Both the position numbers and the translations under genes were made by a program. A stretch of DNA of 64,000 nt from a virus, in IMG/VR virus record IMGVR_UViG_3300005471_000011, positions 1 to 64,000 of that record; one strand, written 5' to 3'. The notes beneath the pieces were generated by a model. That model was not told where the DNA came from. It did not search any database and saw only the letters and a list, made by a program, of their open reading frames with translations. Positions 36,748-59,873 of this stretch are shown in pieces (position 1 is the first letter of the stretch; every line of letters begins with the position of its first letter).

Positions 36748-37083
36748 ATGGTCACGCGCGATGACATGCTGGTAGCCTCAGACCTGCTCCAGGATCGCGG
36801 CTTTGACTCTGCGGCAATGCTGCTGCGCTGGCACGCGGAAGTGATGGAGCCTGGGCACGAATACCAGGACGATGCGTGGCGACAGGACTGGGAGCCGGAT
36901 TTGTCATCGTCGAGCGAGTCAAGCGAATCCAGCACCAGCGAGCTAAGCACCAGCACGAGTTCCACGCCGAGTTCTTCTAGCAGCACCAGCAGTCCGATAA
37001 GTTCATCTTCAGACCCGCCAATGCGCAGGCAGCGAATGCGAGCACGGCGGGCAACGGCTAGGCGAAGGATCGGGCGACGATAA
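36748..37083 (+). CDS. small protein with a Ser-rich core and an Arg-rich tail
   Basis: Abuts the kdsB stop; ~38-aa Ser/Thr tract. Confidence 0.6.
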   Translation: MVTRDDMLVASDLLQDRGFDSAAMLLRWHAEVMEPGHEYQDDAWRQDWEPDLSSSSESSESSTSELSTSTSSTPSSSSSTSSPISSSSDPPMRRQRMRARRATARRRIGRR

Positions 37084-37280
37084 TGGAAAGTCTGAAAGTA
37101 AAACGGGACCATGATGCAGCAGCGCAACGTTTGATAGACGATTTGTCACAGAGTCTTGTCTCTGCCGAACGGAAGATAAAAGAAACACTGGCACTGGCAC
37201 GCCGGCACAGCTCACCTGCGACGAATCCCGGTGCGCACGCGCTGGCGAACAAGATCATCCAAATCCTGGAGGAGCCGTGA
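37083..37280 (+). CDS. hypothetical protein
   Basis: Coupled ORF. Confidence 0.55.
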   Translation: MESLKVKRDHDAAAQRLIDDLSQSLVSAERKIKETLALARRHSSPATNPGAHALANKIIQILEEP

Positions 37281-37605
37281 CCAATAATCCTACGCAAATC
37301 AGCATGTCGCTCTTGCGGGCGCTAGGCATTCCAGGAGAGCGAATCCGCTCAGTAGATCTGCATTTTGATTTCTCCGGAACGCTGCCAGTAGCCACAGTGT
37401 AGAATATCTCCTTACAAAGCAGCAGGCAGATGCCGTCGGTGCGGTGGTAAAGAAATTCAAGTTGATCCCGATGGAGCAAACCGAACGATGCCAAATATGC
37501 GGGACTGACCCCGTTGCATTTATTGGCGGCATTGCTGCATTTTATGCCGAAGGCCACGTTGACCAGGATGATCCCGAATATCCCAAACCGCTAAATCACA
37601 AATGA
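37277..37605 (+). pseudogene. hypothetical protein split by a frameshift near 37398
   Basis: Both ends coupled to neighbours; span 329 nt; ...LPVATV / VEYLL... frames. Confidence 0.5.
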
Positions 37606-37979
37606 TGCTCTACAGCTCCAGCGAGATGCTTGGCCTCGTGGCCAAGGTGTACCTCCAGCAAGCGTCCTTAGTCATCGGCAAGGCAGCCAAAAAAGCCGGC
37701 AAGCCGGTGGGCCAGTTCATGGACGCCGCGCCCGAGGTGGCGAAGCGCGGGCTGAAGCTGACGCGCACGCTTCACAAGCGGTTCGAGCGAGGCGACTACC
37801 GGCACACCGAGGCGGAGCTGGCGATGCTTGAAGCCTACTGCGAGTGGCTGATCGACACGGCCCAGACGCTGGGCGGGCACCCGGTGCGGGAGTTCAAGAT
37901 CAACCGCGCCAGCATGATGCAGCACCGGCCGTTGGACCGGACCTATGCCGAGGTCATCGGCGCAGTGAGGCAACTGTGA
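37602..37979 (+). CDS. hypothetical protein
   Basis: ORF with typical codon usage. Confidence 0.6.
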   Translation: MMLYSSSEMLGLVAKVYLQQASLVIGKAAKKAGKPVGQFMDAAPEVAKRGLKLTRTLHKRFERGDYRHTEAELAMLEAYCEWLIDTAQTLGGHPVREFKINRASMMQHRPLDRTYAEVIGAVRQL

Positions 37980-37992
37980 AAGGGATATAAAG

Positions 37993-38685
37993 ATGGCAAT
38001 TGACATCACCGCTGTATCTAGGCTAAAGCATGCCGACTTGCACAATGCGGCAAAAAAGCTCGGCGGACAATCGGCGCTGGCTAAATTCCTCGGAGTTCAC
38101 GTTTGCGAGATTGGACAATGGTGCAATCTCAGAAAAACACCGCCAAAATCCTGGCCGCCTGAAAGGCTAAATGAAATCGAGCGTAAGCTGTTCGAATTGA
38201 CGAACAAAACTTTAGATCAGCTTTTCCCAAAAGAGCTTCAGGATGCGGAGGAATTCCTGAAGGCACGCAAGGTTATTGAGACGACGAGAACAGTTGAAGT
38301 GGCGGCTTTAATCCGATACGCCGAGAGAACCGCCGAGCGGCTTTCATTTAGCAACGATTCGCAAGCAGAAAAGCTTCACGATCTTGAAGTGCTGAAGGAA
38401 CGGATTCGGAAGTCCATGAAAACGCTTTCGGACCGTGAAAATAAAATACTTGAACTGCGATTTGGACTTAACGGCTGCGAGACGCATACGCTTGCAGAAG
38501 TGGGTAGCGTTCTAGGAATAACCGGAGCACGTGTTAGGCAAATAGAATCGAAGGCTATTCGCAAATTGCAACAGCCCAGCCGATCATTTGAATTAGTTGC
38601 GTTTGCCCCAGAACGAATTGGAGCTTTGCCGCCTTACCAGCAGCCAAGGGAAGTGTGGCCAAGTGAGTTAATAGCTGACGGATAG
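37993..38685 (+). CDS. HTH plus sigma70 region 4 domain transcription regulator
   Basis: GQSALAKFLGV; LSDRE.KILELRFGL....TLAEVG..LGITG.RVRQIE.KAIRKL. Confidence 0.85.
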   Translation: MAIDITAVSRLKHADLHNAAKKLGGQSALAKFLGVHVCEIGQWCNLRKTPPKSWPPERLNEIERKLFELTNKTLDQLFPKELQDAEEFLKARKVIETTRTVEVAALIRYAERTAERLSFSNDSQAEKLHDLEVLKERIRKSMKTLSDRENKILELRFGLNGCETHTLAEVGSVLGITGARVRQIESKAIRKLQQPSRSFELVAFAPERIGALPPYQQPREVWPSELIADG

Positions 38686-38719
38686 TCCGCAGCAGTGCCA
38701 TCTGTTACAACTTTCTCGC

Positions 38720-38959
38720 ATGGCACCGCAGATCACCGCTGGCCGGCAGATACCCGACACCGACGCCGACCGCTGCCAGCAAGAGCTGGACATCCTCAAG
38801 ACCCAGATAGCGCCGGCCATCCTGGCGGAGTTCACTTCCCGCGTCGTGGCGCGCTGCTATGGCAGCTTCCAAGCCAGTTTCAAGTTCACGGACGGGCAGG
38901 TGACGGGCTTTCAAATCTCCGGCCTAAGCGAGAAGAGGCTTGACCGGACGAGTGGATAA
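38720..38959 (+). CDS. hypothetical protein
   Basis: ORF. Confidence 0.5.
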   Translation: MAPQITAGRQIPDTDADRCQQELDILKTQIAPAILAEFTSRVVARCYGSFQASFKFTDGQVTGFQISGLSEKRLDRTSG

Positions 38960-39091
38960 AGTGTAAAACCCTCAAGAGTTAGGAACGCGCCCGAGTTATT
39001 CGGTGAGCAACCGGAAGCCGGGGCGTTGCCGCGATCAAGTAGTGCTGGACTTAGCCCCAGCGCGTACAGAGAGCGACGACGCCCCGGCTTT
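38940..39091 (+). promoter_or_regulatory. putative late promoter with a structured leader hairpin
   Basis: TTGACC-N18-TAAAAC; AGCCGGGGCGTTG/CGACGCCCCGGCT stem. Confidence 0.45.
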
Positions 39092-39111
39092 CGTCGTTTC
39101 AGGACCAATCC

Positions 39112-40119
39112 GTGGCAAAACAAATCACGTTCGCCCTGGGAACAGCGGGAAACCTGTCAGCGCGGACGTTGACGATCCGCGCCATGGTCAATGGGGACTA
39201 CACCGACCACCTGACCACCCAAGCGCTGGCGGGCACGGTCGAGGAAGCCACGGCGGTGATCCCGGACGACTTGAACTGTGAAGCGGTGCTGATCGACCGC
39301 CGCAGCGAGTTCACGATGGCACCGGTGGTGCTGCATTTCGTGACGTCTTCGCAGATTTACCGGGATGTTCAAAGCTCCGCCGCGCCGCGATCCATCAGCG
39401 CGGGCATGCTGCGGATCGTGGACGTGGAGGAGTTGAGCGAATCGTCGGCCAGCTCGCTATCGACAAGCACGCTGAGTTCGGTCAGCAGCAGCAGCACGAG
39501 CACTTTGAGCAGCAGCTCGACAAGTTCTGTCTCCAGTAGTTCGTCCAGCCTCAGTTCCGTTAGCTCTTCCAGCAGCACTCGCAGCTCACTCAGTTCCGTT
39601 AGTTCGTCTAGCTCTAGCCATTCGACGAGCAGCGTCTCAAGCCCCAGCTCGGCCAGCAGCAGCTCGACCTCTTCGGTGTCGAGCAGCAGCAGCAGCCGGT
39701 CCACGGCATCCAGCGTGTCCAGCAGTTCCACGAGCACGCTTACGAGTTCCAGCGTCAGCTCGTCCAGTACATCGACTGTGTCAAGCTCCAGCTCAAGCAC
39801 GACGCAGACGATCAGCAGCAAATCCACGCTGTCCAGCTCGACTCGCAGCAGCAGCTCGTCCGTTACCGCGTCGAGCTTGTCGAGTTCGAGCACTTCATCC
39901 GTGTCAAGCAGCAGCTCCTCGCGCAGCCGCTCCAGCGTCAGCACGGCATCGTCATCCTCAACAAGCAGCCCTTCCACCCTATCCTCGTCGTCGAGTTCTA
40001 CGTTCAGCACTGCCTCGTCCAGTTCGAGCAGCGCCTCGTCCAGTTCGAGCAGCGTTTCTTCGTCAAGTTCAAGTACATCGTCGCTCAGCTCATCTTCGAG
40101 CAGCGTCGGCGACCTGTAG
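39112..40119 (+). CDS. protein with a ~220-aa poly-Ser/Thr tail
   Basis: Globular N-domain followed by a Ser/Thr tract. Confidence 0.75.
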   Translation: MAKQITFALGTAGNLSARTLTIRAMVNGDYTDHLTTQALAGTVEEATAVIPDDLNCEAVLIDRRSEFTMAPVVLHFVTSSQIYRDVQSSAAPRSISAGMLRIVDVEELSESSASSLSTSTLSSVSSSSTSTLSSSSTSSVSSSSSSLSSVSSSSSTRSSLSSVSSSSSSHSTSSVSSPSSASSSSTSSVSSSSSSRSTASSVSSSSTSTLTSSSVSSSSTSTVSSSSSSTTQTISSKSTLSSSTRSSSSSVTASSLSSSSTSSVSSSSSSRSRSSVSTASSSSTSSPSTLSSSSSSTFSTASSSSSSASSSSSSVSSSSSSTSSLSSSSSSVGDL

Positions 40120-40134
40120 CAAAGGAACCTAAGT

Positions 40135-40788: not shown

Positions 40789-40855
40789 CGCACATTTCAT
40801 GGATGAGACGGCAGCCGCGGCCGGAAAACGCGGCATATTTTGAGAGCCAAGAGTC

Positions 40856-43834
40856 ATGCCGATTCCAAAACCCAACGACGGCGAATCCGAGTCCGACTTC
40901 CACGCACGCTGCATGGAAGCTATCGGCGGAGAATACGAGCCGGACCAAGCCAACGCGATCTGCTTTTCGCAGTATCGCGGCGACAAGCGGTCCGTGATGC
41001 TCTCGATGGTCAAGGGTCGCACGTCGGGCGAGTTCGGCTACGGCATCACCACGGCGGATCGGTATGTGGAGCAGGTGATCAAATCCTGCGGCGTGGAAGC
41101 CTCGCTGTTCAACGGCCCGGCGGCGCAGGTCGCGGCGGCGATGAAGCACGCGGCTGGCATGCTGGCGTTCTGCGGCAAGGACCAGCGCCAGGACAAGATC
41201 GAAACCGGCATGGCGGCGATGCGCAAGTTGATCGGCATGGAGCCGCCGGTGCACTCCATGATGGCAATCGTCCACCGGCTAACGACGCCGCGAGAGGACC
41301 GGGACGGCGACACGCTCCAGACCAAGGGCGCACGTCCCGACCCCAAGATGCCGTTCCTGTGGCAGCATGTGTCCACGATCCCCATCGGCAAGCTGGCGCG
41401 GGTGCTAGAGCACACGGAAGAAGTGCTGAAGATGGCGACCGTGCTCCTGGACTTGAACTCGCTGACATCAGATGTCGGCAAGCTGTTTGAGGCAGAGGCG
41501 CTGCGGTTCAGTCACGGGTTCATCCCGACCAACTTTGAGGAGCGCAAGGGCGGTCCGATGGCACGGTTCAACGTGCTGGAGTTCGATGTGGTCGAGGAGT
41601 CCGCCGTCAGCGTGCCTTCCAATGTGGACGCGGAAGTGGAGCTGTTCAGCCGAGGCAAGCTCTCCAGCGATCTGGTCAAGTCCCACGCGAAGTCGCTGTT
41701 CGACGCGCGTATCAAATCCATGCCAGTAACCGACAAGGCCAAGGCGATTTTCGAGAAGGAATCCAGCGGCAAGGGATTCCCTCGCTGTGAGGTCTGCGGG
41801 CAGATCGCCAAGCTGGAGGGCACCAAGCGATGCAAGGCGTGCCGCAGCGGCAAAAAGGAAACCAGCAACCTCGTCCGCAAGATGTTCGACATCGCGACCC
41901 AGCGAGTCGAACCGACGACGATGGAATGCGACTGGGCGGCGCGGTACATCGGCTGCTCGGTCAAGGACCTGCACATCCATTCCACGTCGGCGCGCGGGAT
42001 TATGGTGGGCGGATTTCTCAAGGGGCTGGAACTGGCATGCCAGGAATTTCAGTGCAGCGACACCCGCAACATCAAAGGCGAATCGGAGTCGCCGCCGGTC
42101 TTTGAAACCAAAGAGATCGACAGCAGCACGCGGCAGAACTTCCTGGTGGAAGGCATCCGATTCTGGCACGGCGAAGGCTATAAGATCGTCACGCGCGTGG
42201 AGCCGTACTGGGATTCCCAGCAGCTCGTCGTTTACGCCGAAGAGGGCGAGCAGGCGCAGAAAATCATCGACGATGCCTGGGAATGGCTGGCCAAGAACAA
42301 CCCGCTCAAGGGGCAGGCGTTCGCGCTGACGGGAAGTTGGATCAGCAAGAGCGGCATTGGCTGGGACGACGTGTTCCTGGAAAAGAAGATCGAGGATTCC
42401 CTCAAACGCACGGTGCGGGTCATCAATGAAAAAGGCATTGACGCTGCCAACCGCGGCCTCATTCTTAGTGGCCCACCGGGTACGGGAAAAACTTTGTCCG
42501 CGCGGGTCATGCTCAACGAGACGAAGAACACCACGTTCATCTGGGTTAGCCCCAAGGACTTTTATCGCGGCGGCGGCTTCATGGAGGCGTTCTCGCTGGC
42601 GCGCCAGCTTGCCCCGACGGTGCTGATGTTCGAGGACATCGACAACTGGATTGACCGGTACTCGGTGGACCTGATCAAAGCGGAGATGGACGGGCTGCAA
42701 GAGTCCACGGGCGTTGTAACGATCCTGACGACCAACTTCCCGGACCAGTTGCCGGCGGCGCTGATCGACCGACCCGGTCGTTTCCATGACGTGCTGGAAA
42801 TCCACTTGCCGTCCAAGGACGTGCGGTTGCGGATGCTCCAGAAGTGGGCTGCGGATGCCACTCTGGACGCTTTGGCGGCGATGGCAGAGGAGACGGAGGG
42901 CTACAGCGGGGCGCACGTGTATGAGTTGTGCAGCTTCGCCAAGGTGCTCAAGGACGAAGACGGCAGCACGCTCGATGAAGCACTGACCAAGGCGTTTGCC
43001 AAGGTTAAGGATCAGCGCGAACTGATCAATCAGAACCAACTTGCCGGCAGCAGCTACCGTCCAAGCCGCCGGGATATCACTGACTTGGTCGCTAAAGGCT
43101 GGACGCGAGAAGAACGAATCACCGAAGGCGGAATTCAATACCGCCTCACAAAAGGAGTGGCGGCAATGGACACCAAGATCGGCGATGTGCTGCCCATGAT
43201 CGGCCCCATCCCACATGAAGGGGAAGCAGCGGCTGATTTCCAGTCGCGCTGCATCCTCGATCCAACAATGCTTGGCAACTACCCGACGGTGTCGGACCGG
43301 GAGAGCGCCTGCCGAATTTTGTTCTCTCGCGGCGACGGCATCTTCGCGGCAGCCAAGCCAACGACCAAGGAAGTCGGCACGTGCAAGGAATGCAGCAAGG
43401 AGATGGAACTCAATCCCCAAGGCTTGTGCGCCGAGTGCGCCAGGAAACGCGACGCCGCCGGCTACGACGAGAGCGGCCAACCGAAGTCGGCACCGGTTCA
43501 GATCAAGGCAGGGCGCGTGCTGTCCAAGCGAAACATCGAGCGGCTCAGCGAAGCGCTCAAGCGGCACCAGGAAGGCATCGAGCGGATCAAGGGCGTGCTG
43601 GACGACGCCAACCCGACCGAAGAAGTCGCACCAACGGAGCCAGGTGCCAATGCACCGCTCGCCGGACCAGATCACGTGATGACCCAGGCGGTGCTGCTGG
43701 TCGCCGAGGACCGCGCCGCGCGGGACAAACTGCGCAAGGCCATCGATGCGTTCGATTTGGCGGACGAAGAGGAGCAGAAATCATCGGATTACGAATCACT
43801 GTTCGAAGAGGCGTTAGTTGCGGAAACGGCTTGA
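40856..43834 (+). CDS. HK97-type prohead protease fused to an AAA+ ATPase
   Basis: DRDGD, PFLWQH..PIGK, FSHGF, EESAVSVPSN; GPPGTGKT, MFEDID, TTNFP, DRPGRF, GYSGAH. Confidence 0.85.
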   Translation: MPIPKPNDGESESDFHARCMEAIGGEYEPDQANAICFSQYRGDKRSVMLSMVKGRTSGEFGYGITTADRYVEQVIKSCGVEASLFNGPAAQVAAAMKHAAGMLAFCGKDQRQDKIETGMAAMRKLIGMEPPVHSMMAIVHRLTTPREDRDGDTLQTKGARPDPKMPFLWQHVSTIPIGKLARVLEHTEEVLKMATVLLDLNSLTSDVGKLFEAEALRFSHGFIPTNFEERKGGPMARFNVLEFDVVEESAVSVPSNVDAEVELFSRGKLSSDLVKSHAKSLFDARIKSMPVTDKAKAIFEKESSGKGFPRCEVCGQIAKLEGTKRCKACRSGKKETSNLVRKMFDIATQRVEPTTMECDWAARYIGCSVKDLHIHSTSARGIMVGGFLKGLELACQEFQCSDTRNIKGESESPPVFETKEIDSSTRQNFLVEGIRFWHGEGYKIVTRVEPYWDSQQLVVYAEEGEQAQKIIDDAWEWLAKNNPLKGQAFALTGSWISKSGIGWDDVFLEKKIEDSLKRTVRVINEKGIDAANRGLILSGPPGTGKTLSARVMLNETKNTTFIWVSPKDFYRGGGFMEAFSLARQLAPTVLMFEDIDNWIDRYSVDLIKAEMDGLQESTGVVTILTTNFPDQLPAALIDRPGRFHDVLEIHLPSKDVRLRMLQKWAADATLDALAAMAEETEGYSGAHVYELCSFAKVLKDEDGSTLDEALTKAFAKVKDQRELINQNQLAGSSYRPSRRDITDLVAKGWTREERITEGGIQYRLTKGVAAMDTKIGDVLPMIGPIPHEGEAAADFQSRCILDPTMLGNYPTVSDRESACRILFSRGDGIFAAAKPTTKEVGTCKECSKEMELNPQGLCAECARKRDAAGYDESGQPKSAPVQIKAGRVLSKRNIERLSEALKRHQEGIERIKGVLDDANPTEEVAPTEPGANAPLAGPDHVMTQAVLLVAEDRAARDKLRKAIDAFDLADEEEQKSSDYESLFEEALVAETA

Positions 43835-43900
43835 CGCCGCCCGCAGTGTTCCATAGACGGGCCGCTGCTGCGGCGATAGAACTGTAACCTTCCTAGGAGA

Positions 43901-45535
43901 ATGATCATGAAAGTCACGAGCCAATTGAAGGCGTGGCTCCAGAGCGAAAAAGGCGTCAAGCCGGACGCGACGGAGCAGGACTACCGACAGGCCGCCGCCA
44001 AGGCGCTGACGGATGACACCAACCCGCTGTCTGCGGAGAAGTTTGCGGAGCTGACGGCAGGGGAGGCAGTAAAGCCCGCCAACGCCATGCTGGCGATGAT
44101 GGAGAAGATGAACGCCCGGCTGGACGAGCAAGATGCTCGTTTCAAGAGCATAGAGACAGGTGGTCACCGCGCGGAAGCACCGATCGTTCCAGCCGGCTTG
44201 AAAGCGGCGATCATGGGCGGTGCCAGCGAGATCCCCGACGCCAGCGGTCAGCCGCGCATCAAGCGAGCGGCGGAGCGCTACAACAAGGCGCGCGGCGAGC
44301 TGCGATTCCCGGAGCCGGAGATCAAGAACGAGCGGTATGCCCTGCATCCCCGCAAGGGCCAGCTCGCCAGCTACGGCTCCGCCGGTCGCCATTGCGGCGA
44401 GTTTCAGGTCGGGCAACTTTCCGAGCTGGAGAAGGCTTGCTGCGGCTCATTCATCAAGTTCAGCATCCACAAGGCAGCCAACGGCTTTGGTCCGCCGGTG
44501 CCGCACAACCTGCGCATGAACGATCAAGACTGGGACTTGGTCCAGTACATGATCGAGGAGTGCGAGTGGGGCGGTGTGCTCCACGGGGAAGGCAGCGACT
44601 TCGAAGGCGCGGTCGGCTTGAACGGCAAGCAGCGCCTGATCAAGGGCGCGCAGTTCAACATGCAGAAGGCGCTGCTGGACGATAACACGTCCGGCGGTCT
44701 GGAAGCGGCGCCGATCTTCTTCGACGAGATGCTGATCACCACGCCGCTGCTTCACGGGGAATTGTTCCCGTCGGTGGAAGTTATCAACGTCACGCGCGGG
44801 CGGCGCATCGAGGGCGTCACGATGTCCAACGTGACCCTCGGCGCGGCGACGGAAGGTTCCACGATCACTCTGTTCAACACCGCAGCTTTCATTGCGGCGT
44901 TCGACACGACGATCTTCGTGTGCATGGGTGCCATCGAAATCGGTCTGGACTTCCTGTCCGACTCTCCGATTGACATTGCCGGCGCGGTGGCCAAGAGCTA
45001 CCAGGAGCGGCTGCTGTCCTGGCTGGACGAGCAGATCGCCATCGGCGACGGCACCACGGAGCCGGAAGGTTTGCTTAACAGCGGTGCCACGTCCGTCGGT
45101 TCCACCAACACGTCGGCAGGTCCTTGGACGATTGGCGATGAGTTGGCGCTGATGTTCGCCGTGGCCAAGCAGTATCAAACTGGCTTTGACCGCTCGCGTA
45201 TCCGCTACAGCGGCAACGAAGTGACGTACCGCCGGCTGCGGTCGATCCAGGTGACGACCTCGGATCAGCGACTCGTCCAGGGCATGGACGTGCGGTCGTA
45301 CATGATCCTGGACCAGCCTTACGCCGTGAACGGCAACTGGACCAACCGCCAGCTTGCCTACGCGAATCTGGCTCGTTACCGGATGTATCGCCGCCTTGGC
45401 ATGACCGTCCGCTGGGAAACCGCCGGCGCCACACTGGGTCGCAGCAACACCGGTTTGCTGATTGCCCGCTCGCGTTGGGGTGGGCAGTTGACGGACGCGC
45501 TGGCCGCTTCTCTTTGCACCGACGGCATGTCGTAA
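43901..45535 (+). CDS. major capsid protein (HK97 fold)
   Basis: Follows the protease; SGG...P, DFLSDS.IDI, D.QI..GDG..EPEGLL. Confidence 0.85.
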   Translation: MIMKVTSQLKAWLQSEKGVKPDATEQDYRQAAAKALTDDTNPLSAEKFAELTAGEAVKPANAMLAMMEKMNARLDEQDARFKSIETGGHRAEAPIVPAGLKAAIMGGASEIPDASGQPRIKRAAERYNKARGELRFPEPEIKNERYALHPRKGQLASYGSAGRHCGEFQVGQLSELEKACCGSFIKFSIHKAANGFGPPVPHNLRMNDQDWDLVQYMIEECEWGGVLHGEGSDFEGAVGLNGKQRLIKGAQFNMQKALLDDNTSGGLEAAPIFFDEMLITTPLLHGELFPSVEVINVTRGRRIEGVTMSNVTLGAATEGSTITLFNTAAFIAAFDTTIFVCMGAIEIGLDFLSDSPIDIAGAVAKSYQERLLSWLDEQIAIGDGTTEPEGLLNSGATSVGSTNTSAGPWTIGDELALMFAVAKQYQTGFDRSRIRYSGNEVTYRRLRSIQVTTSDQRLVQGMDVRSYMILDQPYAVNGNWTNRQLAYANLARYRMYRRLGMTVRWETAGATLGRSNTGLLIARSRWGGQLTDALAASLCTDGMS

Positions 45536-50600: not shown

Positions 50601-51288
50601 GACCTCAAATCTCATCATCGACGGCTGCGTGTATCGGGGCGACACCACCGCGGGAGAACCAACGTATCGCGGACTGATGTGGGGCGACTACTGGAATGGC
50701 GGCGACTCCCACATTCGCAACTGCGACTTCCGTGGATGCATGGATGGGATTAGCGGGAACACCAACATTCACGGTACTCTGAGGATCGAGAACGTCAATC
50801 TGCTGGTGAAGCAACACGGCATTGCGATTGATACGCCGTCAACGCCGGGCACGGGCAGCGGCTCCGGGGACCAGGAAATCCGCATCGTCAACTGCCCGGA
50901 GGTGACGTTCTACGGCTCGGTGAGCCCGCGATATGAAATCGCGATGGTTTATTCGATTGCCGCTGGCAATACCAACCTGCGTGTGTTGCAGGCGGTGTAC
51001 ATCGAGGACTACCACCAAGTCACTGATGACAACTTCCGCTTGTATTACGAGGAGCAGCTCAGCACATACGTGATGCCGCAGTCCGTCGGCTCACCGACGT
51101 TCCTCACAGCTTGCCCAGAGGCTGATTTGACGAACGCGGAAGCCTACGTGGCCTACCACCAGGACGGCACCGCCAAGAGTCCGCCGGGCAGTTTAGGTGA
51201 CAGCGAAGGCTGTGCGATTGCGGGGGCGGTCGCTCCAGACGACTATACGACGCGAGCAGAGATTCTCGGTCTCATCGACGAAAGCTAG
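47632..51288 (+). CDS. large putative virion protein with LamG-like, G8 and parallel beta-helix domains (possible depolymerase)
   Basis: LYVDNV..G/FDGEL..LAVYDR.LT; SGPWSS.ATW..GLP.AGD; GW..GD.L.IPD; VANLT.NV.VRS; GRYAFH.HH. Confidence 0.7.
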   Translation: MRTKRKLIFVPAAAEGPSNFPSGAIGIFLLGGGSGDTIPNLVSGISDLTLVGSEDPPDDASNPPGNHDAIRFDGKLTLNSGIGPTYTHTFPLDYTKGTYAVSEPFPNTFGSGGTWGVRFRSAPWVFYGEGEYLPMASAGQMGICTFRPYDMATESELYPNIEDGARYLRFIRYDPTPGQLFMVAGEGNPELGPNSDRIDAVDAYPDYGMSDMDVDHIAIVSFTPEYVKLYVDNVLVGTTTRQTENYETDYLTIQLGLHNLIHSSERCYFDGELNWLAVYDRTLTGDATNEGENPTGEINALYEAMAAEPGTYPTYESIVLPHDTIPNLAVSADTKAISSGPWSSSATWDNGLPAAGDTWGICAGIVVDYDMGNDTTRYRAGGIAPTGRLRFPRDADSQLWIQHLMEYWDEDSGKLGWLDMGTETNPIQAAFTCETIILNEPLETGTAASPGVDPKQYGNGLISLGKWTAKGKERTRLLRLGAEPQATDTTLTLSATPTGWEDGDDLLIPDSRQLDSSTYLGNYASHWEIRQQASRSGTVVTLDSALSYDHPGGESNYSVGQGTGEADFLPHVANLTSNVIVRSEDGTGTRGHIFVTHRAHLDICDIRISQMGRTANGPASSGTQGLNNTILGKTVTGATNASPIVVTVSDDFTELRNLLHNGDEVYISGVGGNTAANGTFTIANVTLGLFVYTFELVGTTGNGAYTSGGTVNHIGTNQIGRYAFHAHHLYGPVNGVGDFSTETADLVLEATTATGDSILAATGSAGPDPIDLTGVQRQGRIERVVIDDPLPAPPSATLPASKWGMTVHGTGYLEIKDCVVLHYAGSGGAIEDGSEKHNAFIRVANFSCIGDVSARETDGRSGTGIFGIGFNNFFIDCVSAGCAGKYSGIVSGSGYLLFVPPSSTANTRQPLYPGADVHDGTEGVDYELVNILEQPIAAFYRNEAYGAIAAAIDIWHLGSGGYSTVDVTPTVLLECVSWHAWEEGLAFLYPTSNLIIDGCVYRGDTTAGEPTYRGLMWGDYWNGGDSHIRNCDFRGCMDGISGNTNIHGTLRIENVNLLVKQHGIAIDTPSTPGTGSGSGDQEIRIVNCPEVTFYGSVSPRYEIAMVYSIAAGNTNLRVLQAVYIEDYHQVTDDNFRLYYEEQLSTYVMPQSVGSPTFLTACPEADLTNAEAYVAYHQDGTAKSPPGSLGDSEGCAIAGAVAPDDYTTRAEILGLIDES

Positions 51289-51293
51289 AACCA

Positions 51294-52118
51294 ATGGCAT
51301 GGACCCAGCAAGTCGAGGACACTTTTACTGGTAGTTTTACCGACCAGATCGCCGGTCGGACCCCAGATACGCAGGGATCAGCTTGGGGGGCTGATCAAGG
51401 GACGGCTGCCGACTGGGTTATTGATGTAACACCCGACGCAATCGACATCGGGGCTTCCGGCGACACTTGGATACTGAACACGACAGCGCTGGCCGACAAG
51501 CAGGCGGCGGAAGTCGTGATGAAGGATGCGCAAGGGATCATCGGCGTCGGCGTGCGGCTGGACGCTTCCGGCAACGGCTACATGGCTCGTTGGGACAGCC
51601 GAGCAATCGCTCAGGATTTGCAGCTTTCCAAGATTTCTTCGGGGACGTTTTCCAGTCTAGGCAGTTACACGTCTGCAAATGGTGCTGATGGCGACGTGTT
51701 AAGAATTGAGGTTGATGGAACATCGTTGACCGTGCTAATCAACGGTTCTGTGGTAATAGGCCCGACGACGGATGCAACTTACAGTTCTGGCAACGCCGGA
51801 ATGTGGACGAATGCGGCAACGAACGGAAAGATCAACTCGTTTAAGGCTTTTGACGAGGCGGCTGATGAAAGCAGCTCCAGTGCGTCCTCGTCAAGCACTA
51901 GCAGCGTTTCGTCCAGTTCGACATCCTCCGCGAGCAGCTCCAGCACGAGTACGGTCAGTTCGTCATCGACGAGCAGCGAATCGTCCTCTTCGACATCTTC
52001 TGCATCCTCTAGTTCCACGTCTTCAGCGTCCAGCTCGTCAAGTTCTTCGAGCGCCGACGTTATCGCTTTTGTCCCCATCCTGAAACGGAGATACGTCCAT
52101 GAGAGTTTATACGCTTGA
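51294..52118 (+). CDS. beta-sandwich protein with a poly-Ser tail
   Basis: GD.LRIEV.GTSL.V.ING...TD.TYSSG.AG followed by a Ser tract. Confidence 0.7.
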   Translation: MAWTQQVEDTFTGSFTDQIAGRTPDTQGSAWGADQGTAADWVIDVTPDAIDIGASGDTWILNTTALADKQAAEVVMKDAQGIIGVGVRLDASGNGYMARWDSRAIAQDLQLSKISSGTFSSLGSYTSANGADGDVLRIEVDGTSLTVLINGSVVIGPTTDATYSSGNAGMWTNAATNGKINSFKAFDEAADESSSSASSSSTSSVSSSSTSSASSSSTSTVSSSSTSSESSSSTSSASSSSTSSASSSSSSSSADVIAFVPILKRRYVHESLYA

Positions 52119-52587: not shown

Positions 52588-52611
52588 TACGAATGACATG
52601 GAGGCGCAGCA

Positions 52612-52929
52612 ATGGTCACGTGGAAAATCTATTACGGGGACGCGAGCACGTTTTCCAATGAGGACGGGCCGCCTGAATCTGCGCCATGCGGCCGAGTCAT
52701 CTGCGTAGCGTTCTACGACGAGGACAATCGCCGCAAACTCTGCCATCAAGCGGACTTCTACATCTGGGACAAAGGCCGCTGGTTCTCCGCCAGCGATTCC
52801 GGTTTCTGGCAGTACATGGGCGAGCCAGGTTTCAAGGTCGTGAAGTTCGGCCGTGAGATCGGCGACTTGGAATACCGGCGGATCATGTCGGCAGCAATGA
52901 ACGACCTGCCGCTGGAGAACGCCGACTAA
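52612..52929 (+). CDS. hypothetical protein
   Basis: GGAGG RBS. Confidence 0.65.
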   Translation: MVTWKIYYGDASTFSNEDGPPESAPCGRVICVAFYDEDNRRKLCHQADFYIWDKGRWFSASDSGFWQYMGEPGFKVVKFGREIGDLEYRRIMSAAMNDLPLENAD

Positions 52930-55421
52930 TGACATGCCCGGCCGCATTCAACCAGAAAGCTTTTCGCGGCCGAAACGACGACGGCAACGAGACGACTGCC
53001 ACCTGGAAGGCGAACCAGAACACCAACTGGACGCAACTCGTTGACGTCAATTTCCGGGTGCGGTTTGAGATCCAGGAGACGGCCGCTTGCGCGGGGGCCA
53101 ACAAGGTTTGGCGCCTGCAATACAACCGCAATTCCGCTGGCTGGGTTGACGTCAGCGGTTCCAGCAACGTCGTGCGCGCATCCGCGTCCGCGAATTTAGC
53201 GGACGGTGCAAACCTGACCGACCAGCTCACGGTTGGGACCGGGACGTTCATCGGCGCGACTGGCTTCGACGAAGTGGACGGCAATGCCGGCGGTGCCTCG
53301 ATGGACGTGGCCGCGTCCGGCCATTCGGAGTGCGAGTTTTCCGTACAACTGCGCTCGGCCGATGTGTCGGACGGCGACGCGATTCAGCTTCGCGTCAGCG
53401 ACGCCGGGACGGCAATCGCCGCATACGATGCGACGCCTAGCATGACCGCAGACGTGCAAAGCGCCAGCTCTGCAAGCTCGGTCAGCAGTTCCAGCACCAG
53501 CAGCATTTCATCGTCCTCGACGAGTTCTGCGTCATCATCGTCAACGAGTTCCGCAAGCTCAGTCAGCAGCTCTAGTACCTCGTCGGCAAGCTCCAGCAGC
53601 ACGTCGTCAGCCTCAAGTGTTTCCAGTTCATCAACCTCCAGCGCCAGTTCTGTTTCGTCGGAATCATCTTCCAGTACGAGCAGCGAATCTTCGTCGAGCA
53701 CAAGCACGGCCAGCTCACTGTCTTCATCATCAACTTCGTCGGCCAGCTCGGTATCAAGCAGCAGTTCTAGTACCTCGCAGAGCGCCGGCGGTACCAGCTA
53801 TCGTTACGTCATCACGCGGCGGACGACGCGGTTCCTGTACGAGGAATATCCGCTGCCAAGAACAGCCGCGGATCGCCTGGCACCACAGGAGGAAGAAAGC
53901 AGCAATAGTTCTAGCTCGACCTCCAGCGCAAGTTCTTCGTCAACGTCTAGCGCTTCGTCCTCAAGCACGAGCACGGAATCATCGAGCGTCAGCAGCTCCT
54001 CGACATCCACGGCTTCAAGCAGCTCAACCTCGTCGGCGTCGTCGAGCAGCACGAGCACCGCTTCCTCGCTGAGTAGCGAATCCAGCGTCAGTTCGGTTTC
54101 GAGTTCCTCTACTAGCAGCGAGTCATCAAGCAGTACGTCCTCGGCAAGTAGTATTTCGTCATCGAGCACCAGTAGCGCCAGTTCTGTTTCCAGCAGCTCA
54201 ACATCCTCACCGACAAGCGAATCCAGCGCTAGTTCGGTGTCCAGCTCCAGCGTCAGTAGCTCATCCACCTCCAGCGAATCATCTTCCAGTACATCGTCGA
54301 TCAGCTCTAGCTCCACAAGCACTGCCTCCACAAGTTCTTCTGGCGTTGGCCCAACCATCGTTTATGTGGTGATCCGGCGAACCATGCGGTTTGCTAAGCC
54401 GGAAGATGATCGCTCGGACGCCGTCATCGTCGAAACGACTGTTGTCGAAGATGAGGAGTCGAGTTCATCCACAGCCAGCAGCGTTTCTTCGTCGAGCACA
54501 AGTTCCGCCAGCTCCAGCTCGACATCCACTGTTTCTTCATCCTCGACCAGCTCGGCAAGTTCGGTCAGTTCGGTCAGTAGTAGCTCCACTTCATCCGCTT
54601 CTTCAAGCAGCACGTCGAGCGTCTCAATCGCCAGTTCGCTGAGTTCGGTTTCCAGCTTATCGACATCAAGCATCTCGTCGTCTAGCACCAGTACCGCGAG
54701 TAGCAGCGTTTCATCCTCTAGCACTAGCAGTGCGAGCAGCAGCTCGACATCCAGCGCATCCTCAAGCAGCACGTCAACGCAAAGCAGCTCAGTATCGAGT
54801 TCTTCTACGTCGAGCATTTCAAGCAGCTCTACGTCGTCGATCAGCTCTAGCTCAACGTCAACCGAAAGCAGTTCCCAGTCGGTGGACGAGTCAACGTCCA
54901 GCACGCGATCTTCGTCCAGCACGTCGAGCATTTCGAGTTCATCGACCTCCTCCGCATCGTCGATCAGCTCCGTCAGCAGCAGCTCGACCTCCAGCGTTAG
55001 CTCGGCATCCTCCGCCAGCTCGTCTAGCACGAGCACCGCGTCGAGTTTGTCCAGCTCCTCAACGTCCTCGGTCAGCAGCGTTAGTTCTGTTTCAAGTTCA
55101 AGCACCTCAAGCGTCAGCAGCGCATCGACGCTCAGCTCCTCTTCGACGAGTTCAATCTCCAGCCTGTCCTCGGCCAGCTCGCAAAGTTCCTCCAGCACCA
55201 GCTCGGCAAGCAGTTCCTCGACAAGCAGCATCTCCTCATCGAGCACGAGTAGCCTGTCTTCTCAAAGCAGTTCCAGCCTTTCCACGAGTTCCAGCTCCAG
55301 CGGTTTGGGATTGTTTCCGGCCTGCGCAGGTGCTACAAGGGTTGGGATTGCTCACGCGGGAGCACGACGGGTAGGACCATACACTGCGGGGGCGCAGCGC
55401 AAGTCGGAGGAACGCGAATGA
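52929..55421 (+). CDS. large Ser/Thr-rich protein with three poly-Ser blocks
   Basis: N-domain (FRGRNDDG.E..ATW, FRVRF) followed by Ser tracts separated by short basic/acidic linkers. Confidence 0.75.
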   Translation: MTCPAAFNQKAFRGRNDDGNETTATWKANQNTNWTQLVDVNFRVRFEIQETAACAGANKVWRLQYNRNSAGWVDVSGSSNVVRASASANLADGANLTDQLTVGTGTFIGATGFDEVDGNAGGASMDVAASGHSECEFSVQLRSADVSDGDAIQLRVSDAGTAIAAYDATPSMTADVQSASSASSVSSSSTSSISSSSTSSASSSSTSSASSVSSSSTSSASSSSTSSASSVSSSSTSSASSVSSESSSSTSSESSSSTSTASSLSSSSTSSASSVSSSSSSTSQSAGGTSYRYVITRRTTRFLYEEYPLPRTAADRLAPQEEESSNSSSSTSSASSSSTSSASSSSTSTESSSVSSSSTSTASSSSTSSASSSSTSTASSLSSESSVSSVSSSSTSSESSSSTSSASSISSSSTSSASSVSSSSTSSPTSESSASSVSSSSVSSSSTSSESSSSTSSISSSSTSTASTSSSGVGPTIVYVVIRRTMRFAKPEDDRSDAVIVETTVVEDEESSSSTASSVSSSSTSSASSSSTSTVSSSSTSSASSVSSVSSSSTSSASSSSTSSVSIASSLSSVSSLSTSSISSSSTSTASSSVSSSSTSSASSSSTSSASSSSTSTQSSSVSSSSTSSISSSSTSSISSSSTSTESSSQSVDESTSSTRSSSSTSSISSSSTSSASSISSVSSSSTSSVSSASSASSSSTSTASSLSSSSTSSVSSVSSVSSSSTSSVSSASTLSSSSTSSISSLSSASSQSSSSTSSASSSSTSSISSSSTSSLSSQSSSSLSTSSSSSGLGLFPACAGATRVGIAHAGARRVGPYTAGAQRKSEERE

Positions 55422-55798: not shown

Positions 55799-55809
55799 AT
55801 GGTGCCACT

Positions 55810-56634
55810 ATGATTGTCCTTGAGGCTGAACTTCGCGGGGCGCTGGGATTGCTGCCGAACATCACCGACGTGCAGCGGGTGCGGTGCACGCTGGCGCTGC
55901 TGGGCGGGCACGCTGCCGTGCGGACCTATATCCACTACGACCCCGAGCAAAAGGCAGGTATTGCTGAGTTCTACCCCAGGAACGAGCTGAGCGCCGTAGA
56001 AAGCCTTGACGGCACGTGGGACGTGTCCGGCGGCAAGGCTGTCTTTGAAGGCGACACGCTGCTCGGAAGGTATTTGCAACTTCAGCGGCTTCCGGTTCGT
56101 GCAGTCACTGATCTTCGCGTTGACCTGGACGCACGCAGCGGGCAAGGAGCAGGGGATTTTGCATCCGATACCATCTGGACCGTCGGCGAGGACTACTGGG
56201 TGGAGTGGGACCAGGCGAATGTGTGCTTATCGGGGCAGTTGATCAGCGACCGCGGTTGGCCAGCATCCATCGGTAAGGTCCGCGTCGTCTATCGCGCGGG
56301 CTATAGTCCAATCGAGTTCAATGGTCCGGCGGCGGAAAGCGACACCGATGGCGAGGATGTCATCACGACGCAAGGGATTGACGCCAGCGCGCTGAAGTAC
56401 GGCTGCCTGATGGCTTGCGTCGCCAAGTTCCATACCCTTAGCTCGTGGGCGGTCAACTCGATCACCGGATCGCTCACCACCGGTCCGCTCCAGAGCGAAC
56501 GCATGGGCGACTACAACTATACGCTCGCCAATCCCCAGGCTTCGTCGCTAGTCGCCGGCATGGCAAATACGCTGCCGAACGAGATCAAAGAATACCTTGA
56601 GCCCTTCGTCAATTATGGGATTCTCGTTGGATGA
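55810..56634 (+). CDS. head-tail adaptor/connector
   Basis: LQL.RLPV..VT, VRV.YRAGY, LQSERMGDYNYT. Confidence 0.75.
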   Translation: MIVLEAELRGALGLLPNITDVQRVRCTLALLGGHAAVRTYIHYDPEQKAGIAEFYPRNELSAVESLDGTWDVSGGKAVFEGDTLLGRYLQLQRLPVRAVTDLRVDLDARSGQGAGDFASDTIWTVGEDYWVEWDQANVCLSGQLISDRGWPASIGKVRVVYRAGYSPIEFNGPAAESDTDGEDVITTQGIDASALKYGCLMACVAKFHTLSSWAVNSITGSLTTGPLQSERMGDYNYTLANPQASSLVAGMANTLPNEIKEYLEPFVNYGILVG

Positions 56635-56825
56635 GCTTGCCGACAAACCTGTACTGCGAATGCGGACGCATCGCACTTTACGCGCGGAACGTACAAGGCA
56701 AGGCACGAGCGCAAAGCGTCTGCCGGGAGTGCCACGAGCAGGAAGTCCGCAACAGCATTCGCGAGCCTGGTTTTATTGAGTCTCGCGCCGAGCGCATCAT
56801 CCGCAAGCCGATTGGGTCTGTATGA
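56631..56825 (+). CDS. small zinc-finger protein
   Basis: CECG..CREC. Confidence 0.5.
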   Translation: MSLPTNLYCECGRIALYARNVQGKARAQSVCRECHEQEVRNSIREPGFIESRAERIIRKPIGSV

Positions 56826-57283
56826 TCTACAAACTGACGGAACAAGTCTGGTGGGGCAACTGGGAATCGCCAGTGGAGGCCGGGCGGGATGTTCGCTGCA
56901 TCATCAATGTTGCACATAGCTTCAGCCGCCGCCGAGGACGGAATGCCTATTGGGCGCGCCAAGAGCAGGTCCCGTGGGAGACGATTACCTTTCGATTTGC
57001 CAAGAAGGACCGGATGGATGTGACGCCTGAATACCTGGCAGCAATAGCGTCCGCCGTTGATTCAGCAGTGCTTCTCGGCAAGCTGCCAATCTTGACGCAT
57101 TGCCAGATGGGCGGGCATCGCGGGCCAACCACTGCCTTGTTCGTCGCGTGGCATTTGGCGGGCAGAACGCGATCCGCCTTCAATGAGCTGCACGCCAAGG
57201 CGCTGAAGTTGTTCCCGCGTCTCGCCAACGGCAGCAATTTTTACAAGTCAACGCTGGCTTTCTGCGAAGTGAACAGCCGATGA
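56822..57283 (+). CDS. dual-specificity/tyrosine phosphatase-family protein
   Basis: IINVA; ILTHCQMGGHRG matches HCX5R. Confidence 0.75.
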   Translation: MIYKLTEQVWWGNWESPVEAGRDVRCIINVAHSFSRRRGRNAYWARQEQVPWETITFRFAKKDRMDVTPEYLAAIASAVDSAVLLGKLPILTHCQMGGHRGPTTALFVAWHLAGRTRSAFNELHAKALKLFPRLANGSNFYKSTLAFCEVNSR

Positions 57284-57633
57284 GCCTGCTCGACAACTTT
57301 CCGCACACGATTGACTTAGCCAGGGCGACGTACAGCGTTGGCGGCTACGGTGGCGACAAGCATACGCTGACGAGCTTCATTACGGGAGAAGCCGCGTGGG
57401 TTCAGGTCGCTTCGCAAAAAGAAATCGCGGAGTTCGCAAAGAAAGACCAGGACGTCAGCCACAAGATTTACCTTCGCCGCGATCCAGGACTTCAGCTTGA
57501 CGACGATATCTTGGTCCACGGCGGACCCTACGACGGCAAGCACCTAAAGGCGAAGAGCTGGGCGGACGCGACGGCTGGCCTTGGGTACGCATGGAAGTTG
57601 TTCGCATCCCTCAACCGCGAGTCGCAAGCATGA
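57280..57633 (+). CDS. putative head-closure protein
   Basis: Position in the neck module; beta-rich. Confidence 0.6.
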   Translation: MSLLDNFPHTIDLARATYSVGGYGGDKHTLTSFITGEAAWVQVASQKEIAEFAKKDQDVSHKIYLRRDPGLQLDDDILVHGGPYDGKHLKAKSWADATAGLGYAWKLFASLNRESQA

Positions 57634-57971
57634 ACGTCGTTGGATTCGCCTCGCTGGATGATTTCATCGGCGAGCTGCGCCGCGAGAAAAACAACATCGC
57701 CGACCGCATCGTGCGCTGGCACGAGAACCGCAGCCCGGAGCAGGAAGAACAGCTAACATTTCACTTGGAAGTCTGGGCGACAGCCATCGCCAAGTGCGAG
57801 GACAATGACTACCTGCTGGAGTTCGAAGCGGCGGCGGGACGGGACAGCGAGATCGACGGGGACCGCTCCAGCGAAGCCAGCCAGCGGGCGGCGACGGCAC
57901 GCGCCAAGCTAGCGGAAGCGTGCGACGACCTGGGGCTGCAACTGCGTCCCGGCAAGATTGAGGTCTGCTAG
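57630..57971 (+). CDS. hypothetical protein
   Basis: Coupled ORF. Confidence 0.55.
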   Translation: MNVVGFASLDDFIGELRREKNNIADRIVRWHENRSPEQEEQLTFHLEVWATAIAKCEDNDYLLEFEAAAGRDSEIDGDRSSEASQRAATARAKLAEACDDLGLQLRPGKIEVC

Positions 57972-58451
57972 ATGGCGAAGCTGCCAAATTCGCGCATGCC
58001 GCTGGAAGCGTTCAACGCCCGCACGCTCAAAAATTGGAACCTCAAGCGGATCAAGTTCGACGTTCGGCTCAACCTGAACATCGACCGGCTGGTTGCCAAT
58101 ACCAAGCTGACGGTCGCGCAGAGGATCAAGATTGCAGGCCAGCTACTGCGCGACGGCGTTGTGGTAAATTTGTCCCGCCCAGTCCGCAAGTACCGCAGCA
58201 AGCGCACCGGCAAGATGGTGGTCGATCCCAAGAGCCGCAGCGTGCGCGGGGAATTCCCGCGTGCCGATACGACGCGGCTTCTCAAGGACATCTACCATCT
58301 CTTCCGGTCGGAGGAGCTTGCCAGCTACGTAGGCACGCGCCTGCTATACGGGAAGATTCTGGAAACGAGAATGGATCGTTCGTTCCTGCGCCGCACACTG
58401 AATGAGCTGCGCGGAAAATTGCTGATGATCGTCCGGGGAAGCAAGCTATAA
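57972..58451 (+). CDS. HK97 gp10-like neck protein
   Basis: GEFP..DT..L, VGT.L.YG.ILE, R.FLR. Confidence 0.65.
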   Translation: MAKLPNSRMPLEAFNARTLKNWNLKRIKFDVRLNLNIDRLVANTKLTVAQRIKIAGQLLRDGVVVNLSRPVRKYRSKRTGKMVVDPKSRSVRGEFPRADTTRLLKDIYHLFRSEELASYVGTRLLYGKILETRMDRSFLRRTLNELRGKLLMIVRGSKL

Positions 58452-58458
58452 TCCGGCC

Positions 58459-58977
58459 ATGACAATTAACCCCCGCGGCAGTTGGTCCATCCATAAGGCA
58501 ATCGAAGAGCGCTGGGTGGACAAGGGCTTGGACACAGCATTCCGCGCCGAGTGGCCCACCCCGGCTACCACGCAGTATCTCAGCCTGAACGATTCAGAGG
58601 CGCGCCCCGGCAAGCCGATCCATCCGACGCCGTATTGCGTCTATGAGGTTGGCGAGCCAATCATCCTGAGCCACAGCACGGGCGCGGCAGATGACGACGT
58701 TCCGGTGGATACCCATCGCAAGTACATCGACGTTCCTGTGCAGTTCACGATCTACGCCATACAGAAGGGTGCTTTAAACGGCAAAGAGATGGCTGTCCAG
58801 TTCGCCAAGCTTGTCGCCCGGCAATTCGACAGGGCTTTATATACGCTTGAGGAGGACGAGCAGATCGACGTGATGATCGATCCCGACTTCGGCACCAGGC
58901 AGGATGACCAGACCTGGTCCTGGACGCTCCAGTACCGCATCAGAATCGAAGGCAAGTATCTGATCGCCTTGTCTTGA
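58459..58977 (+). CDS. putative tail terminator/completion protein
   Basis: PYCVY, VQFTIY; position. Confidence 0.6.
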   Translation: MTINPRGSWSIHKAIEERWVDKGLDTAFRAEWPTPATTQYLSLNDSEARPGKPIHPTPYCVYEVGEPIILSHSTGAADDDVPVDTHRKYIDVPVQFTIYAIQKGALNGKEMAVQFAKLVARQFDRALYTLEEDEQIDVMIDPDFGTRQDDQTWSWTLQYRIRIEGKYLIALS

Positions 58978-59105
58978 GCGTTACGGCTTGACCCGCCGGA
59001 GAGGCGGGTGCTACAACTACGCTCTGCATTCGGACCCGGCGCGAGCATTCCGCTCGCAACGCCTCGCCGCTGGTTCGCACCTTCCTTGGGAAGCGGTGCG
59101 CGGCG

Positions 59106-59873
59106 ATGAACCGAAGCGCGAGCGGCAAGATTCGGCTAACGCTGGAATCCACGCTGGTCAACTTGCTTGACAGCCAAGTCCCGGCGACCTGCTCCGTCGG
59201 CGCGGACTTCTCGGCCACGCTGAACAACGGCATCGAAGCTGACCAGTTTAACCGCGCCTGGGCAAGCGGGGACCGGGCGCTTTCTTCCGGCGCAAGCGAG
59301 ACGCTCGACCTTTACCAAATGACCGGCATGGACATCGGTGCCGGAGCGGGCAATGACGGCTTGGGGTTGGCGTGCCTTTTTGAAGAGATCGTCGCCATTG
59401 TGATCAATGTTTCGGCAGGGACCGGGGCGCTGGAAATCGAGCCCGGTGGCGCAAGTGGGTTGACGGCACTGGGGATATTGACGGCGGCGCTGGGCGGCGC
59501 GTTGAGCTTGAACGACTCACTGGTGCGGATTGCCAGATCGGCCGGCGGGATCGACCTATCCTCGACCAAGAAAAATGTCAAGTTCACTGCCAACGGTGGG
59601 CCGGTCACATACTCCGTGACGATCTTCGGACGCCATGACGACGAGGAAAGCTCATCTTCCAGCAGCAGCTCCACCAGTTCGCTGTCTTCTTCGAGCACGT
59701 CGTCCGTAAGCAGCGAGTCGTCCAGTAGCACCGCAAGCTCCAGCACAACTTCAACTTTGAGCAGCGTCAGCAGCTCTAGCACGTCGAGCGTTTCTTCGTC
59801 GAGCACTTCATCCGCGAGCAGTTCGTCTTCATCCACTAGCACAGCGAGCAGCAGCTCGTCCAGCAGTTCCTAG
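59106..59873 (+). CDS. putative virion protein with a poly-Ser tail
   Basis: Gly-rich beta domain, then DDEE and a Ser tract to the stop codon. Confidence 0.7.
   Translation: MNRSASGKIRLTLESTLVNLLDSQVPATCSVGADFSATLNNGIEADQFNRAWASGDRALSSGASETLDLYQMTGMDIGAGAGNDGLGLACLFEEIVAIVINVSAGTGALEIEPGGASGLTALGILTAALGGALSLNDSLVRIARSAGGIDLSSTKKNVKFTANGGPVTYSVTIFGRHDDEESSSSSSSSTSSLSSSSTSSVSSESSSSTASSSTTSTLSSVSSSSTSSVSSSSTSSASSSSSSTSTASSSSSSSS

Follow-up and report, generated by a model that had tools for sequence, protein, structure and literature searches.

The first 64 kb of a single linear viral record (IMG/VR IMGVR_UViG_3300005471_000011; 104,107 bp, 59% GC, 83% complete by the CheckV estimate, with about 17% missing) formed the window of this analysis. 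Five genes in the window encode proteins with long serine/threonine (Ser/Thr) tracts, and two further tract-bearing genes were found just past its end. Because Ser runs are carried by seven proteins of the particle modules and a conserved set of sugar-activating and sugar-transferring enzymes is encoded with them, this phage probably coats its own particle with sugars, judging from its gene content. With reasonable confidence, we read the tracts as portable O-glycosylation acceptor tails or linkers on proteins of the head, neck and tail modules, possibly primed with the 2-keto-3-deoxy sugar acid Kdo. Directly observed are the tracts and how far they are conserved, the folds and motifs of the enzymes, and the linkage of the genes. 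The seven tract-bearing genes are:

36748-37083, + strand: small Ser/Thr-tract protein of 111 amino acids (aa) with an Arg-rich C-terminus; tract at aa 51-90 (bases 36898-37017).
39112-40119, + strand: carrier family 2, a 107-aa N-terminal domain (N-domain) with a 227-aa Ser/Thr tail; tract at aa 108-334 (bases 39433-40113).
51294-52118, + strand: 190-aa N-domain, 68-aa Ser/Thr tract and short hydrophobic-basic C-terminal segment; tract at aa 190-257 (bases 51861-52064).
52929-55421, + strand: 830-aa protein, 176-aa N-domain followed by three Ser/Thr blocks at aa 177-290, 321-474 and 509-794 (bases 53457-53798, 53889-54350 and 54453-55310).
59106-59873, + strand: carrier family 1, a 177-aa jelly-roll N-domain ending in GRHDDEE with a 78-aa Ser tail; tract at aa 178-255 (bases 59637-59873).
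Genome 66029-67741 (L001:2029-3741), beyond the window: family 1 paralogue with a 186-aa tract between the N-domain and a 204-aa C-terminal domain.
Genome 67745-68449 (L001:3745-4449), beyond the window: family 1 paralogue with a 57-aa Ser tail.

An initial annotation of the window had described five open reading frames (ORFs) with long Ser/Thr tracts, and all five were recovered at the same positions on the + strand with translations that carry the tracts. The acidic junctions that it listed (VEELSES, AADES, QEEES, EDEES and DDEES) are as described and conserved in relatives, and its SSSSTSS(A/V/I) unit proved real at the protein level. Over the tracts of all seven genes (1209 residues; S 826, T 141, A 59, V 56, E 31, L 29, I 15), Ala, Val, Ile, Leu or Glu is found at roughly every eighth residue, Thr recurs at a lag of eight residues at 2.8 times the expected frequency, and SSSSTSS is present in 61 copies. 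Consecutive 8-mers are 62% identical as protein and only 36% identical as DNA. All six Ser codons are used (AGC 281, TCG 160, TCC 130, AGT 103, TCA 87, TCT 65) in nearly the same proportions as in the rest of the genome, with an entropy of 2.41 of 2.58 bits, and Tandem Repeats Finder reported only three tiny arrays inside the tracts. DNA slippage as the origin of the tracts was therefore ruled out, as the initial annotation had held: the codons are mixed and genome-typical, DNA repeats are scarce and the 8-residue rhythm exists in the protein only, which together argue that the tracts are kept by selection at the protein level. Its description of the tracts as a portable module on unrelated N-domains also held.

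In the 830-aa protein of 52929-55421, the segments between the blocks (aa 291-320 and 475-508; bases 53799-53888 and 54351-54452) share a hydrophobic-basic motif, Y.VI.RRT.RF. They may be strands by which the protein is held on the particle, with the Ser blocks looping out. The tract of 51294-52118, a protein for which no homologue was found among the fetched relatives, is followed by a comparable segment (VPILKRRYV).

To examine the conservation of the tails, viral-contig homologues of the N-domain of 59106-59873 were gathered with a six-sequence subset, the full 15-sequence alignment being too divergent. Fifty of the 52 homologues ran in frame from GR[HSN]D-x-[DEN]-[ET] into a Ser tail of 31-241 aa (67-90% Ser, except two of 225 and 241 aa that extend past the run), in loci whose GC ranges from 35 to 66%. 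Of the remaining two, one ends without a tail and the other is cut by the contig end. Across the database, 119 homologues of the carrier N-domain were found, most of them 200-313 aa long, which is the length of domain plus tail. A small tail-less subfamily ends exactly at GRSA, and the tail-less homologues (L098:9272-9838; P0231, P0234, P0235) stop at the junction, at GRSA or GV. No Maf-like transferase gene (see below) was found in the three records with tail-less homologues; because these records are only 14-68% complete, the joint absence of tail and transferase is merely suggestive. Homologues of family 2 in relatives likewise keep the Ser tail, and also their position between the portal and protease-AAA genes. 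The family 1 gene of 59106-59873 has a tail-terminator-like gene on one side and the tape measure gene on the other, which is the slot expected for a major tail protein. Its N-domain was modelled as a jelly roll (pLDDT 75) with a best Z of 8.0 (Ena pilins, GOLD domains, small virus coat proteins), and PHROGs gave no match for the carrier domains. A search of 22 records with a (WSN)n DNA pattern was uninformative, in that hits fell in out-of-frame DNA for coiled coils and in Lys/Glu-rich DNA and interrupted tails escaped it, but it exposed a poly-Thr variant. This is a 970-aa ORF upstream of the Maf-like gene in a complete 95-kb relative (G014; L025:1539-4448), in which poly-Thr tracts (TTTTSTTTT, with Pro) replace poly-Ser and which looks like a Thr version of the same design.

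The genes for the putative sugar enzymes lie partly in the window and partly beyond it, as follows:

34918-35613, + strand: Methyltransf_24 methyltransferase, a cassette member in relatives.
35965-36747, + strand: KdsB-like cytidylyltransferase, probable synthetase of CMP-Kdo (CMP, cytidine monophosphate); PF02348 1.5e-30, above cut-off.
Genome 68446-69489 (L001:4446-5489), beyond the window: Maf-like/GT42-like transferase, 347 aa.
Genome 73787-74641, beyond the window: DxD protein (DxD to GT2-like, L001:9787-13264).
Genome 74638-75180 (L001:10638-11180), - strand: HNH endonuclease gene inserted within the cassette.
Genome 75496-76407, beyond the window: GT8-like gene.
Genome 76404-77264, beyond the window: GT2-like gene.
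Genome 91865-92623 (L002:7865-8623), beyond the window: second Methyltransf_24.

The ATG of the Maf-like gene overlaps the stop codon of the last Ser-tail gene (ATGA). As a single sequence its product gave no match in Pfam (E <= 0.05), NCBIfam or PDB sequences; 297 homologues were found in the database. An AlphaFold (AF2) model built from 38 homologues (pLDDT 92) shows a central Rossmann-like catalytic domain of the Maf/GT42 type, preceded at the N-terminus by a single long basic helix. The best solved structure match is the Maf glycosyltransferase of Magnetospirillum magneticum (5mu5; Z 13.1 over 198 residues, root-mean-square deviation 3.8, chain residues 254-517), followed by MptE (Z 9.8) and the GT29 and GT42 sialyltransferases (Z 8.4-8.6). 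The top Foldseek matches were the Campylobacter jejuni GT42 enzymes CstII and CstI, and these were also the only PDB sequences found by the profile of the 38 homologues, with CstII the best at E 0.008 and about 14% identity. Two colinear motifs align with CstII: GGPSL with GNGPSL, and LG..vYL.GvDF..YAF with LGYKEIYLSGIDFYQNGSSYAF. We take these two regions (G-x-G-P-S-L and G-[IV]-D-F...Y-A-F) to be the CMP-binding regions of CstII, whose catalytic base is presumably His188. In the phage family G83, P84, S85, G234, D236 and Y245 are invariant, and H223 and H126 nearly so. Given the fold matches to Maf and CstII and the alignment of both motif regions, the protein is therefore predicted to be a small transferase of the CMP-ulosonic-acid type.

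The transferase and the tracts are linked well beyond this genome. Of 48 Maf-like loci, 26 have an ORF with at least 16 Ser/Thr in 20 residues at a distance of no more than 10 kb, whereas none of 120 random viral loci, which covered 1.03 Mb, holds such an ORF (Fisher p = 7e-17); the association between tract genes and sugar genes that the initial annotation had proposed to look for was thus found. In nine loci, and in this genome, the tract gene lies at most 1.6 kb upstream of the transferase. Only one homologous pair exists among the nine fetched upstream carriers, one of which matches the carrier family of this genome, and the tag therefore appears to have been grafted onto different proteins repeatedly, each time next to the Maf-like enzyme. 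Three records of at least 35 kb hold a Ser-tailed homologue but no Maf-like gene in its flank, and all three carry one further away. About a hundred of the metagenomic viral loci fetched show the system again, and across many loci the cassette is contiguous in the order Maf-like, DxD protein, GT8-like, Methyltransf_24, KdsB, GT2-like. A complete 82,655-bp genome with terminal repeats shows the same order and encodes two Ser-tailed proteins and no more. In the present genome the cassette is scattered, with 34918-36747 in the window and 68446-69489 and 73787-77264 beyond it.

The KdsB-like gene ends at 36747 and the small tract gene begins one base after its stop, at 36748, which bears out the abutment reported in the initial annotation. 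The five best NCBIfam matches of its product are all KdsB (2e-51; 174 bits against a cut-off of 193), TIGR00466 scored 125 against 155, and the PseF model reached only 36 bits (6e-9). The enzyme is the likely source of the activated sugar donor. Neither KdsA nor NeuB was matched in the genome, and we therefore take the sugar to be made by the host and only its activation to be encoded by the phage. The GT8-like protein matches PF01501 at 4.5e-5 (23.6 bits against a cut-off of 24.3), its family profile matches glycogenin at 1.6e-5 over the DxD region only, and DAD and H.HG are invariant in 18 homologues. The GT2-like family profile matches chondroitin synthase 3, TarP and TarS at 6e-4 to 7e-3, and the protein scores 14.8 bits with PF00535, below cut-off. 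For the DxD protein family no PDB or Pfam match was found; profile comparison with the GT8-like family gave a weak match (E 0.015), and a GT6 look-alike (Atlas, score 0.94) was treated as a lead only. In three metagenome-assembled-genome contigs (L102:5668-8118, L106:937-3198, L107:2375-3892) the DxD and GT8-like parts lie in one long ORF, with limits taken from simple frame extension, which suggests that the two act jointly. Homologues of the second Methyltransf_24 adjoin the cassette in some relatives, as do those of an FkbM-type methyltransferase (genome 82964-83899; L001:18964-19899).

Several points weigh against tails that serve as glycan acceptors on the particle. Much of the co-occurrence could be explained by shared descent, because carriers and cassette are both found throughout the lineage. 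That the carriers are present in the virion we infer with gene position as the sole basis, and the structure-match lists for the carrier N-domain contain no known tail tube or decoration protein. A search of 50,697 GenBank phage records for relatives of the capsid protein, the Maf-like protein and the carrier domain found none, and hence no cultured member. Searching all six frames of the genome with PF01973 (E <= 10) returned nothing, the Maf-like gene included, and only the central domain of 5mu5 aligns with the 347-aa phage protein, in which none of the N- and C-terminal accessory domains of Maf were found. The KdsB scores fall below the curated NCBIfam cut-offs, and the sugar may for this reason not be Kdo. 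Two of the tract proteins also use their tracts as connections: the tract of 66029-67741 joins two folded domains, and the three tracts of 52929-55421 join short conserved segments. Finally, the acceptor is not fixed by the shared fold, because sialyltransferases of the same fold act on glycans.

In a rival explanation the cassette has another target, for example the DNA of the phage or, as happens in serotype conversion, the lipopolysaccharide or capsule of the host envelope, in which case the enzymes would share a lineage with the Ser-tailed proteins by chance. Phage glycosyltransferases often modify DNA or host surface glycans (PMC12619734), Kdo is an envelope sugar, and GT42 relatives act on lipooligosaccharide (9c08); the substrates of CstII are lipooligosaccharide glycans. 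Against such a target, the transferase gene lies inside structural modules (at the tail end, or in the order adaptor-Maf-portal) and repeatedly stands directly behind tract genes of unrelated families, and its product matches the structure of Maf, which O-glycosylates a protein, better (Z 13.1) than those of sialyltransferases that act on glycans (8.5). We consider this explanation quite improbable.

The connecting tracts, for their part, are what would be expected of unmodified polyserine linkers or entropic bristles, that is, flexible hydrophilic spacers for domains or particles, with the cassette serving some other purpose. Mixed-codon Ser runs that join domains are known from enzymes of Saccharophagus degradans and Teredinibacter turnerae (PMC2386152, PMC2699552); those linkers, however, connect the catalytic and binding modules of secreted enzymes, whereas the phage tracts are mostly C-terminal and travel with transferase genes. 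Most of the phage tails are terminal and connect nothing, the conserved acidic junction resembles a defined start site, and plain linkers would leave unexplained the tight and repeated adjacency to the Maf-like gene across several unrelated carrier families. On this balance unmodified spacers seem unlikely, if less so than a cassette with another target.

The initial annotation had drawn two further genes of the window into its proposal of an acceptor tag for glycosylation or phosphorylation:

12592-13464, + strand: ugd-like (UDP-glucose/GDP-mannose dehydrogenase-like) gene, 290 aa, with two Pfam domains of the family (N-terminal, central) and no hit to the C-terminal one.
56822-57283, + strand: 153-aa protein with the motif HCQMGGHRG, within the neck genes.

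Its tie between the tracts and sugar enzymes stood: it had seen no glycosyltransferase in the window, and the search of the rest of the genome that it suggested located three transferase-like genes (Maf-like, GT8-like and GT2-like), all beyond the window end, that in relatives form a conserved cassette with the KdsB-like and Methyltransf_24 genes which it had named. A role for the ugd-like gene found no support, as this gene lies outside the conserved cassette and has a homologue in only one related locus. The same was true of phosphorylation, in which the tails would be phosphorylated or phospho-glycosylated with the CX5R protein as a regulator. Poly-Ser is a possible kinase substrate, and the HCQMGGHRG motif within the neck genes is the sole pointer to phosphorylation in the genome. 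The supposed CX5R phosphatase, however, has this motif only, matches no Pfam family and showed no link to the tracts; Pkinase was not matched in the genome, and no kinase was found among about 80 ORFs scanned against Pfam. We give phosphorylation very little credence.

Returning to glycosylation by the phage-encoded cassette, we infer the function of the tails as acceptors, the identity of the sugar and the purpose of the coat, which the initial annotation had proposed to be shielding or adhesion. The disordered tails or linkers would be O-glycosylated in the host cytoplasm during assembly by phage-encoded enzymes. The KdsB-like enzyme would activate a host-made 2-keto-3-deoxy sugar acid, most likely Kdo, to the CMP-sugar, and the small Maf-like/GT42-like transferase would then attach this sugar to the serine hydroxyls of the tails. 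The GT8-like, GT2-like and third, DxD, enzymes would lengthen the glycan, and the Methyltransf_24 and FkbM-type methyltransferases would cap it, leaving an acidic, mucin-like brush on the particle. The complete scheme is put forward tentatively, as possible rather than probable: a large uncultured lineage of tailed phages, probably infecting Planctomycetota among others, would encode its own mucin-like coat, with a movable poly-Ser acceptor, a minimal Maf-type enzyme that primes with Kdo from a phage-made CMP-Kdo pool, and two or three more transferases and methyltransferases that finish the glycan, an undescribed pathway with Ser-O-Kdo as a natural linkage. If the tails are indeed glycosylated in this way, Ser-O-Kdo, until now observed only where promiscuous Maf enzymes act in E. 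coli, would be shown to occur naturally. Glyco-engineering could make use of a compact transferase (about 350 aa) with a simple portable acceptor tag, and the coat would be a new influence on whether environmental phages adhere to surfaces, hosts and grazers or keep clear of them.

To our knowledge, experimental proof of phage-particle glycosylation exists only in mycobacteriophages. Their glycans are placed at the C-termini of capsid and tail tube subunits, as far as the account of Freeman 2023 in PMC12619734 goes. For Che8, Corndog and Myrna that account gives phage-encoded glycosyltransferases, C-terminal glycans on structural subunits and a proposed shield, which are points in common with the system described here. 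The latter differs in its enzymes (Maf-like, GT8-like and GT2-like with KdsB and methyltransferases) and in its acceptors, which would be poly-Ser tails of 31-290 residues on proteins other than the tail-less capsid protein; it is also known from genes alone. Glycosylation of phage virions is thus already known, and it is the enzymes and the acceptor design that differ here. No publication on phage poly-Ser tails or on phage cassettes of the Maf-like kind came up in the literature.

The closest bacterial counterpart is Maf, which puts CMP-ulosonic acids, Kdo included, on Ser/Thr of a surface filament protein (PMC11339370); Magnetospirillum magneticum (5mu5) and Clostridium botulinum are the species compared. 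The Maf enzymes of C. botulinum and Geobacillus kaustophilus take CMP-Kdo to form Ser/Thr-O-Kdo on flagellin (PMC11339370; bioRxiv 10.1101/2020.06.03.131540), and that of Aeromonas (A. caviae) prefers Ser/Thr with apolar flanks (PMC11339370), a preference that resembles the SSSSTSS(A/V/I/L) unit of the phage. Maf is, however, about 630 aa long, acts on folded flagellin domains and is encoded in flagellar loci, whereas the phage enzyme has 347 aa, a gene in the structural module and poly-Ser tails as its putative acceptor. Similarly, the serine-rich repeat adhesins (GspB, Fap1, SraP, PsrP) have very long Ser-rich regions, which are heavily O-glycosylated in the cytoplasm before display and form a mucin-like fibre. 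They depend on GtfA/GtfB together with the accessory Sec system, and their repeats are of the dipeptide type; nothing of this kind was seen in the phage; the search for GtfA/GtfB and accessory Sec families covered about 80 scanned ORFs, with small ORFs and the missing 17% or so of the genome outside the scan.

The structural modules in which the tract genes lie are marked by the following genes:

29430-31049: terminase.
32046-34604: portal-MuF fusion.
40856-43834: 992-aa fusion of a prohead protease with a full AAA ATPase.
43901-45535, + strand: major capsid protein, HK97 type.
55810-56634: head-tail adaptor.
58459-58977: tail-terminator, weak match.
61131-62429, + strand: tape measure protein (phrog_27166, 5e-20), which fixes the tail module.

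The major capsid protein has no Ser/Thr tract. The protease-AAA fusion is kept beside the capsid gene in relatives. A 1218-aa protein (47632-51288) directly precedes two of the Ser-tract genes and gave weak beta-helix, G8 and laminin-G-like matches; it has no homologue among the fetched relatives and might serve as a fibre or in the binding or cleavage of polysaccharides. As to the host, relatives of the Maf-like transferase were found on 10 metagenome-assembled-genome contigs, and the binning of five of these as Planctomycetaceae or Planctomycetota hints at the host of the phage, which is probably Gram-negative.

Between the KdsB/Ser-tract genes and the head genes lies a phage factor of the sigma-70 family (37993-38685; region 4, 1.9e-15). 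A radical SAM protein is encoded further along the genome (88002-88847; L002:4002-4847). Behind the cassette lie the genes for a 918-aa N6-methylase with Eco57I-type methylase and HsdR-N domains (genome 78098-80854, - strand; L001:14098-16854) and for a DDE transposase (genome 81021-82028, + strand; L001:17021-18028).

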